Positions 21,590-26,352 of a DNA stretch of 64,000 bases are shown here, in pieces. Positions within the stretch are counted from its first letter, which is position 1; the number at the start of each line of letters is the position of its first letter. The translations under genes were made by a program, and so were the position numbers. Origin of the DNA: Escherichia coli (lineage in GTDB: Bacteria; Pseudomonadota; Gammaproteobacteria; Enterobacterales; Enterobacteriaceae); NCBI RefSeq assembly GCF_003334305.1, contig NZ_QOWS01000004.1. One strand, 5' to 3'. The notes below the pieces were generated by a model. It had not been told where the DNA came from. It did no database searches and saw only the letters and a list, made by a program, of their open reading frames with translations.

Positions 21590-24480
<2,891 letters not shown>

Positions 24481-24488
24481 GTAACCGT

Positions 24489-24568
24489 GCCGGATGCGGC
24501 GTGAACGCCTTATCCGGCCTACATAGTTCGTGCGACATGTAGGCCCGATAAGCGCAGCGCATCGGGCA
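24489..24568. repeat. Pair of inverted REP units (BIME) downstream of ascB
   Basis: gccggatgcggcgtgaacgccttatccggcctaca and tgtaggcccgataagcgcagcgcatcgggca. Confidence 0.85.
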
Positions 24569-24593
24569 ATCTGGGGTTTGGCATCAGTCAAAA

Positions 24594-25013
24594 TCAAAGA
24601 AACCATTCCGGCTTAACGCCAAATCGGGCTGAAAGTGCCTTAATGTGGGATATTGTCAGGGATCGTTGTCCAGACAAAATCTGACTGACCAGGGATTTAG
24701 AGCCGATTTCGTTCTTCAAATCCGCATAGGTCAGATTATGTTGATCAATCAACGTGCGAAGTAACGCCACGCCAACCGGCATTGCCGCAACGGCTTTGTC
24801 GAACTCTGCAAACTTTTCGTTGTTGTTTTCATACTCTGCAATGCGGCTCGCCAGAAAGTCGATAAGTGGATTGGTGTCATCTTCTTCAATCAAATATTCG
24901 ACCAGTTCCAGTGCTTCACGATAATCATCTTCTGAGTCACTGCCTCCCAGAAAGGGGACTGCATTGACCAGTTCTCTTGTTGCTTTAACAGCGCGTGCAG
25001 CATTAGCAGTCAT
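24594..25013 (-). CDS. HigA-family antitoxin-like HTH (Xre/Cro-type) protein, no adjacent toxin gene
   Basis: ORF track 24594..25079 (TTG start); ATG at 25011-25013 gives 140 aa MTANAARAVKATRELVNAVPFLGG...GSKSLVSQILSGQRSLTISHIKALSARFGVKPEWFL; by eye about half the residues match my recollection of E. coli HigA (YgjM). Confidence 0.7.
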   Translation of the reverse strand: MTANAARAVKATRELVNAVPFLGGSDSEDDYREALELVEYLIEEDDTNPLIDFLASRIAEYENNNEKFAEFDKAVAAMPVGVALLRTLIDQHNLTYADLKNEIGSKSLVSQILSGQRSLTISHIKALSARFGVKPEWFL

Positions 25014-25032
25014 TCTTTGTTCTCTCTGTAGT

Positions 25033-25055
25033 AACGTGACGTCTGTCTGCACGTA
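25033..25055. promoter_or_regulatory. Inverted repeat ACGTG-N11-CACGT upstream of the HigA-like gene (candidate autoregulatory operator)
   Basis: aacgtgacgtctgtctgcacgtaa between the ORF B stop and the HigA-like ATG. Confidence 0.35.
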
Positions 25056-25083
25056 ATCCCCCTCATAGCCACTCTGCAAAAAG

Positions 25084-25857
25084 TCAGTTCTGGTTCACCC
25101 CATAAAGCACATCCCCCTTTATCAAGCAACGCTGCGTCTGCGCCAGATCTTCCGTTTGCGGGTCGCGCCCGGCGATGGGTTTGAGGACGAGTTTACGGTT
25201 GGGGGTATAAGTAAAACGCGTGAGCGCGGGATAGCTTAACTTGCCAAACCAGCCGTGAACACGCTGCCATTTGGCGTCTTTTACCTGATACAGACTGGTT
25301 ATCCAGTAACCAGAATTAAACTGCATATCCAGCAATTGCGTGTGACCATTGCCTTGCAAATCCAGCAAATCATCTACGCCAGTTTTGCTTGCGGTGTAGA
25401 ATCCCCTGGGTTCAAAGACACAGGGACGGCCTTCGCGCGTGAACGTCATAAGAATTAAATGTGCATAAGGAGCCAGACCATTACCGGTACTTGGTAACCA
25501 GATAACCAGATCCTGAATGCCGTTACGATCAAGATCGGCGCGATAGAGTTGCCCTTTGCCCGCTATGTTTGCCAGCATACCCACAGGCACAGACCAGGAT
25601 TTACCGGCGCGATCTTTACCGTTCAATTGCCATTCACTATCATCATTTGGCATCTTTTCAAGCGTCACGCCAGCAACGCCCACTTTTCTAAAATGCCAGG
25701 TTTGCTCGGCATCATAAGGCATGGTCAGGAGAGGTTTCAGCGCCCGCTTTTGCGCGTATTCGCTGTCACTCATTGGCAGATATTCGGTAAAGCTGGTGGC
25801 CTGTGCAGGCAGCACTAAGCTCAATAAAAAAGCGCACATCCCTGTTCTGATATTCAT
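25084..25857 (-). CDS. Sec-exported protein of unknown function with two DxDxNG-like (FG-GAP/calcium-loop-like) motifs
   Basis: ORF track 257 aa; signal peptide MNIRTGMCAFLLSLVLPAQA|TS; motifs ADLDRNGIQDLVIW and DDLLDLQGNGHTQLL; ATG 24 nt downstream of hycI stop, same strand. Confidence 0.65.
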   Translation of the reverse strand: MNIRTGMCAFLLSLVLPAQATSFTEYLPMSDSEYAQKRALKPLLTMPYDAEQTWHFRKVGVAGVTLEKMPNDDSEWQLNGKDRAGKSWSVPVGMLANIAGKGQLYRADLDRNGIQDLVIWLPSTGNGLAPYAHLILMTFTREGRPCVFEPRGFYTASKTGVDDLLDLQGNGHTQLLDMQFNSGYWITSLYQVKDAKWQRVHGWFGKLSYPALTRFTYTPNRKLVLKPIAGRDPQTEDLAQTQRCLIKGDVLYGVNQN

Positions 25858-25881
25858 TTCGCTGAATTCCCTGATGGAGAA

Positions 25882-26352
25882 TTATTCTTCTTCCACCGCT
25901 AACTGCGCGAAGCCGCCATTCCCTTCCCAGCCTTCCAGTCGTTGATAAACGGTTTCAACCGCATCTTTAATCGGCTGGGTCATCGGGTAGTAAAAGCCGA
26001 CGATATCCGGCTGGATGCCGAGGAAAATCACTTCGCCAATATCTTCTTTCAACTGGTCGATAAGGTAGTTCAACGGCATGTTATGGGTAGTCATCATAAA
26101 CATCTCGGCGATATCATCCGGGTCGATGATGCGGATCTCGCCGGGGTTTAGCCCCATATCAGTGGCGTCGACAATCAGCAGTCGCGTAGGGCGCAGTTCA
26201 CGGATGGCGACGATGTCGTTTTCCGGTGCACTACCGCCGTCAATCACCACCCAGTTACCTTTCGGCGCGGCGGCGCACTTTTCCGCCAGCAGCGGGCCTG
26301 CGCCATCATCGCCCATCATGCTATTGCCAACACAGAGTAAAACGTCAGTCAC
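25882..26352 (-). CDS. hycI: Hydrogenase 3 large-subunit maturation endopeptidase HycI
   Basis: ORF track 156 aa [25 protein letters not shown]. Confidence 0.95.
   Translation of the reverse strand: MTDVLLCVGNSMMGDDGAGPLLAEKCAAAPKGNWVVIDGGSAPENDIVAIRELRPTRLLIVDATDMGLNPGEIRIIDPDDIAEMFMMTTHNMPLNYLIDQLKEDIGEVIFLGIQPDIVGFYYPMTQPIKDAVETVYQRLEGWEGNGGFAQLAVEEE

Follow-up and report, generated by a model that had tools for sequence, protein, structure and literature searches.

Organization of the ascB-hycI interval

The window analyzed here – a 64-kb stretch of Escherichia coli chromosome – contains the interval between ascB and hycI, with ascF and ascB located on the + strand and ending at position 24480. 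The ascB gene (23056–24480, + strand; 6-phospho-beta-glucosidase) forms the conserved left flank of a variable site, and is separated from the convergent higA gene by REP/BIME-like palindromic repeats (24481–24593) that were read directly from the sequence and are also kept in the K-12-like empty allele. The orphan higA gene (24594–25013, - strand) is intact, and proceeding upstream of it on the same strand are a 3′ stub of higB (25010–25038), recognized by alignment with toxin-bearing alleles and by tblastn; a 26-nt junction segment (25039–25064; GAGGGGGATTACGTGCAGACAGACGT on the coding strand) that replaces approximately 426 nt of the full allele; and a conserved spacer just 3′ of the hyp stop codon (25065–25083), which is common to full hyp-higB-higA alleles and represents the left edge of the deletion described below. 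Next is hyp (25084–25857, - strand), an open reading frame for an uncharacterised 257-aa protein, which the deletion has placed directly upstream of higA. The conserved right flank is hycI (25882–26352, - strand), which codes for the hydrogenase maturation peptidase and closes the hyc (formate hydrogenlyase) operon, such that the gene order on the - strand beyond higA is hyp, then hycI-hycH-hycG. The hyp gene starts 24 nt downstream of hycI, and its stop codon is 70 nt from higA. The open reading frames flanking higA are hyp and REP-derived frames, and an Rfam search over 24300–26000 found nothing.

The left flank of the higA site is polymorphic too, because in several strains – CFT073 (L006) and those carrying alleles L008, L010, L014 and L015 – hydN and a gene for a 142-145-aa hypothetical protein, annotated as DUF4259 in one record, take the place of ascFB on that side. 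Sequence NZ_CP116176.1 (H1) is 100% identical to the window over 1.8 kb, but has an IS621 (IS110-family) insertion of approximately 1.28 kb within the matched interval.

The higA open reading frame begins with ATG and has 139 codons and a stop codon. The initial annotation of this DNA, made from the sequence and describing a HigA-family antitoxin-like gene with no toxin partner, gave the product as 140 aa, one residue too many; the two peptide stretches that it quoted do both occur in the translation. The protein is identical to RefSeq WP_000126294.1, which is labelled 'helix-turn-helix domain-containing protein' in thousands of genomes and 'type II toxin-antitoxin system HigA family antitoxin' in some. 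A phmmer search of the PDB matches it to 5ifg_B, 'Antitoxin HigA', with an E value of 2.5e-35, aligning residues 9–138 with 5ifg_B residues 8–136, and BLASTP comparison with K-12 HigA gives 61/130 identical residues (47%) and 70% positives, in good agreement with the 'roughly half' of the residues that had been estimated by eye to match YgjM. Pfam HTH_3 (PF01381), an Xre-type domain, is located at residues 85–138 (E 7.9e-9), and the proposed two-part HigA layout is therefore present, with an N-terminal helical domain that is related to that of K-12 HigA, followed by a helix-turn-helix at the C-terminus. A search of NCBIfam gave no meaningful match, the one hit being a spurious antiporter that scored 16.9 bits where 156 are required. 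The similarity to K-12 HigA, a protein studied experimentally, covers the full length and includes a C-terminal Xre-type helix-turn-helix; it is far beyond chance, and higA is a real HigA antitoxin gene. The HMM and BLASTP comparisons with HigA/YgjM that the initial annotation had proposed as its own check thus bear it out.

The product of hyp has no match in Pfam, NCBIfam, PADLOC, PHROGs or the PDB, and a single-sequence AlphaFold model is all-beta with a mean pLDDT of 39.7, which is too low to use. Its N-terminus, MNIRTGMCAFLLSLVLPAQA/TS, looks by eye like a signal peptide, making the earlier description of the upstream gene as coding for a Sec-exported protein a reasonable one. At least 80% of hyp is present in 1463/5426 complete E. 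coli genomes, and it is unusually polymorphic within the species, with alleles differing by up to 118/774 nt. Relative to the window allele, those compared (L001, L002, L005-L007, L012, L015, L018 and L020) have dS values of 0.24-0.53 and dN/dS of approximately 0.17-0.28, and the amino acid changes are seemingly clustered centrally, as judged by comparing two translations by eye.

The toxin side of a higBA module has been deleted

The ascB-hycI interval is structurally polymorphic across 5426 complete E. coli genomes, among which we used the toxin-bearing allele of strain GENOMIC22-004 (L001) as a reference. The gene order in L001 is hycI - hyp - higB - higA, with higB coding for a 103-aa protein and overlapping higA by 4 nt. 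L001 HigB matches K-12 HigB in the PDB (5ifg_A, E 4.5e-22), and L001 HigA is identical to that of the window at 139/139 residues. The distance from the higA ATG to a conserved ATAGCC motif past the hyp stop codon is 451 nt in L001 and 51 nt in the window, so that the net loss amounts to 400 nt. What is retained of higB is a stub of 29 nt with the last eight sense codons (RYYRENKE) and the stop codon, in which the ATGA stop/start overlap of higB and higA is preserved, together with the native sequence immediately upstream of the higA start. The junction segment beyond it represents filler DNA or else higB sequence in an advanced state of decay.

A tblastn search of the 64-kb window with the allelic and the K-12 HigB as queries recovers the stub directly upstream of higA (E 0.048), and all other matches have E values above 0.5. 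The earlier statement that no toxin open reading frame flanks higA therefore stands, although the stub itself had been overlooked; it is the kind of remnant that a tBLASTN search had been suggested to reveal. The window has no intact toxin gene beside higA, and thus no complete type II toxin-antitoxin system, and its higA does not follow directly on a RelE-superfamily higB as HigA-family genes do. The allelic loci with an identical HigA do place higB first and directly upstream, and this establishes the ancestry of the window gene. Because other strains have higB next to a higA for the identical protein in this same ascB-hycI interval, and because the stub and the ATGA overlap are retained, the first of two origins that had been offered for this gene – a lost-toxin remnant – is demonstrated: higA represents the antitoxin gene of a chromosomal higBA module of type II that has lost its toxin side by deletion. 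It is an orphan antitoxin in the usual sense, a toxin-less homologue in the same context as valid pairs that keeps a remnant of higB and the ATGA overlap. The reverse scenario, in which higB was inserted beside a pre-existing solo higA, would leave the higB stub difficult to explain, and nothing contradicts an origin by deletion.

The higA gene is present in 2509/5426 genomes, always as a single chromosomal copy. A full-length higB is found in 1092 of the 5426, a partial higB match alone in 581 (a 33-nt 3′ stub in every row sampled), and higA without a detectable higB match in 836, so that toxin-less alleles (approximately 1417) are commoner than intact pairs (1092). The exact junction of the window, defined by a 66-nt probe spanning it at 95% identity or more, is present in 503/5426 genomes. 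In UTI89 and others a different deletion has fused hyp at approximately codon 58 to the 33-nt higB stub, leaving a 61-aa hyp fragment, and since the window junction differs from the UTI89-type junction, at least two independent deletions have taken higB and spared higA. The allelic states at ascB-hycI therefore include a K-12-like 'empty' site, hyp only (hyp without higA, L020), higBA only (directly beside hycI and without hyp; L003, L016 and L017), hyp-higBA, and the two toxin deletions.

In the K-12-like strain AML001_par (L019), the spacer at approximately 880-940 seems to hold remnants of both ends of hyp, ~32 nt from its 3′ end and ~16 nt from its 5′ end, that meet at an ACATCCC microhomology. 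The K-12 type of site would in that case have arisen by deletion of hyp rather than being ancestrally empty.

These allelic states also bear on whether hyp, as an exported protein, could be a non-canonical toxin or some other functional partner of HigA. The two genes are adjacent, on the same strand and 70 nt apart, and hyp has no known function. However, this adjacency was made by the deletion, as full alleles have higB and its promoter between the two genes; 581 genomes have hyp cut to the 61-aa fragment while higA is intact; and an antitoxin that acts in the cytoplasm would be unlikely to target a protein bearing a signal peptide. The occurrence of higBA without hyp (L003, L016, L017) and of hyp without higA (L020) rules hyp out as an obligate partner of HigA, and we regard a partnership of any kind as highly improbable.

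The higBA cassette of L001 is approximately 0.9 kb long and lies between the REP region and the hyp stop codon, bounded by a 4-nt direct repeat (TCAG, + strand), and the window holds a shortened form of this type of cassette. Divergence within higA and higB (dS ~0.08-0.09) is far below that of the flanking hycI (dS 0.30, window versus L005) and of hyp, which suggests that the cassette is younger than the allelic lineages that flank it and may have been spread among them by recombination.

Expression and maintenance of the orphan higA gene

The hyp-higB spacer of L001 contains a sigma-70-like site (TTGTGA-17-TATAGT, 2622–2594 of that locus, gene strand), and an imperfect palindrome read by eye (GTTTACA-TAT-TGTGAAC) overlaps its -35 hexamer. 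An inverted-repeat finder reported no exact repeat in the L001 promoter and identified one in the L003 variant only, which is 13 nt long and located where L001 has its palindrome. A palindrome over the -35 hexamer is the usual layout of an antitoxin-repressed toxin-antitoxin promoter, and we infer that the promoter-like site and palindrome of L001 form a HigA-repressed higBA promoter. Both are located inside the segment missing from the window, where the autorepression operator typical of the HigA family is consequently absent. Between hyp and higA on the - strand of the window there is no promoter-like (sigma-70) site and no terminator-like site; in the absence of a promoter-like site there, any transcription of higA must come from upstream (hyp, possibly hyc). 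A 39-codon TTG-initiated chimeric frame (25010–25129, - strand) runs from the 3′ end of hyp through the junction filler and the higB stub to the ATGA, and could, if translated, preserve translational coupling to higA.

Several observations concern the selective history of higA. Among 18 sampled alleles there are 30 variable sites in 420 nt, 25 of them synonymous and five non-synonymous, and pairs of alleles differ by up to 16 synonymous and no non-synonymous changes (dN ~0, dS 0.09-0.16). This pattern indicates strong purifying selection on higA, taken as a whole, within the species. Variants private to toxin-less alleles comprise five synonymous and two non-synonymous changes (P ~0.01 against a neutral expectation of 76% non-synonymous), approximately 1400 toxin-less genomes retain a full-length higA, and in just five of 2509 genomes is its DNA identity below 95%. 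Decay of the orphan does occur, as the UTI89-type higA of strain GPEC102 (L010, 2001–2395) lacks 25 bp and carries a frameshift annotation.

The window and L005 share the same junction, and their higA genes differ by eight synonymous and no non-synonymous changes, with 5/70 differences in the adjacent spacer. We considered this comparison as proof of purifying selection after toxin loss and rejected it, because the haplotypes are mosaic and the differing sites recur in other classes: the window higA is the same as that of L007, a toxin-bearing O145 allele, all eight sites at which L005 differs from the window are common to other allele classes, and the same junction adjoins hyp alleles differing by 65-74/774 nt. 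The mosaic haplotypes and shared sites are better explained by recombination than by new mutation. As recombination with toxin-bearing alleles can import sequence that appears to be 'selected', continued selection after toxin loss cannot be claimed from it. The approximately 1400 intact orphans, the low non-synonymous variation and the two deletions that spare higA do suggest continued selection, but the conserved sequence of the orphan gene could also stem from toxin-bearing alleles through recombination.

One role for which continued selection might act is that of an anti-addiction or immunity gene, in which the orphan HigA is selected to neutralise the HigB of a plasmid or phage-plasmid and so cancel post-segregational killing, an idea for orphan antitoxins that is established in the literature (PMC7354431, PMC7192599). 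Potential targets are abundant: HigB homologues with 60-80% protein identity and an adjacent helix-turn-helix gene are present on more than 500 enterobacterial plasmids; plasmids of Enterobacter, Leclercia and Citrobacter carry HigB at 78.6% identity; the 94-kb Cronobacter phage JK004 carries a homologue at 76.7%; and the plasmid HigA partners are approximately 78% identical to the window HigA. The orphan reading frame is also intact in some 1400 genomes with little non-synonymous variation. Against this, the native higBA promoter-like site has been deleted from the window, at least one orphan allele (L010) is frameshifted, and the conservation signal is confounded by recombination. Moreover, the plasmids with HigB matches are mostly from Klebsiella (653/1046, compared with 63 from Escherichia), and no plasmid among the 5426 E. 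coli genomes carries a near-identical higB. Overall, we consider an anti-addiction role possible and somewhat doubtful. The fuller proposal that the orphan HigA is a selectively maintained chromosomal antidote against plasmid HigBA, moved by two separate deletions to a position behind hyp at the end of the hyc operon, seems to us unlikely; if true, it would account for the excess of toxin-less alleles over intact pairs together with the preservation of the reading frame.

The second origin that had been offered for this gene was that of a stand-alone regulator, with HigA co-opted after toxin loss to control other genes. Some HigA proteins of other species are reported to regulate other genes, the helix-turn-helix domain is intact and the reading frame conserved, and both deletion classes put higA behind hyp or a 5′ fragment of hyp at the hyc tail, which could give it a new expression pattern. 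However, the protein is identical to its toxin-paired form and hence gives no sign of adaptation to a new task, and a search of the 64-kb window for the putative operator GTTTACATATTGTGAAC, tolerating up to three mismatches, found no copy. We found no positive support for this option, and it appears distinctly improbable.

The reading that we prefer, with a probability of approximately 0.88, is that higA is a deletion-origin remnant of higBA that is passively retained with latent antidote capacity and has no new dedicated job. The module has the order hycI - hyp - higB - higA between ascB and hycI in many E. coli strains, and in the lineage of the window a deletion of net 400 bp removed the higBA promoter-like site, the -35 palindrome and all of higB except its last eight sense codons. 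It left higA intact and with its native translation-initiation region, 70 nt behind the hyp stop codon. The product can presumably still fold as a dimer, with an N-terminal toxin-binding domain and the C-terminal helix-turn-helix, because it is residue-for-residue the same as the HigB-paired HigA of other strains, and the maintenance of an identical protein beside an intact HigB in 1092 genomes gives indirect support to its predicted binding and neutralisation of HigB. If made, HigA could bind a HigB-type toxin and the lost operator, neither of which is present in this genome segment, and its expression would need read-through of a hyp or hyc transcript. The passive part of this reading has to contend with the approximately 1400 intact toxin-less genomes, the 25:5 site pattern, and two deletions precisely sparing higA, which suggest otherwise.

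Relationship to known toxin-antitoxin systems and orphan antitoxins

The closest well-characterized relative is the HigA of E. coli K-12 (YgjM, with higBA corresponding to ygjNM), for which the structures 5IFG, 6JQ4 and 5YCL are available. The two proteins are of the same length class (138 aa in K-12, 139 aa here), collinear over their full length at 47% identity, and share the same N-terminal helical domain and C-terminal Xre helix-turn-helix. The operon logic of K-12 higBA is also that of the allelic strains at this locus, with the toxin gene first and higB overlapping higA, and higBA has been described as a relBE-like locus in which the toxin gene comes first (PMC2814082). The window higA is a paralogue of ygjM located at ascB-hycI, with ygjNM located at fadH-rlmG (PMC7232551), and unlike K-12 higBA it is without toxin, promoter and operator. 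The plasmid higBA modules of Klebsiella, Enterobacter and Leclercia belong to the same subfamily and have the same gene order, with HigB approximately 79% and HigA approximately 78% identical, but they are complete, whereas the window locus is chromosomal and toxin-less.

PADLOC matches the window HigA to the N-terminal, HigA-like part of PD-Lambda-2_B (E 2.4e-14, positions 9-115 of a 402-position profile) and the allelic HigB (L001, 2214–2522) to PD-Lambda-2_A (E 1.1e-15), matches that link this higBA subfamily to a validated three-gene anti-phage system. In the PD-lambda-2 system (Vassallo et al. 2022) the HigA-like domain is fused to a C-terminal peptidase and accompanied by a third component (PMC9519451). 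We do not assign the window locus to it, as the 139-aa protein has no peptidase domain and there is no third component; the similarity reflects the shared HigB and HigA domains only.

A literature search for the ascB-hycI locus (higBA and hycI) found no paper on it. Earlier work has reported orphan higA genes at other loci in E. coli (PMC7232551), and orphan antitoxins from decayed type II toxin-antitoxin loci have been surveyed in Klebsiella (PMC7192599). The fates discussed for such genes are those of remnant, anti-addiction gene and regulator (PMC7354431, PMC7232551, PMC7192599), with an anti-addiction role having been proposed and not established as general (PMC7354431, PMC7192599). For annotation, the appropriate label is that of an orphan antitoxin of the HigA family, left behind when higB was deleted, and neither a complete toxin-antitoxin system nor a new regulator.

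The feature is of an already known kind – an orphan antitoxin from a degraded toxin-antitoxin locus, in a gene that is already annotated – and the window locus as it stands is ordinary and would not surprise a specialist. The site offers a clean natural allelic series across several thousand sequenced E. coli genomes, which could be used to test orphan antitoxins as anti-addiction genes, a question that is still live in the field (PMC7354431, PMC7192599). Known orphan antitoxins are likewise found in the context of valid toxin-antitoxin pairs from which the toxin side has been deleted, and the window higA is no different from them in kind; what distinguishes the ascB-hycI orphans is that they outnumber the intact pairs (~1417 versus 1092) and derive from at least two independent deletions that are both widespread.
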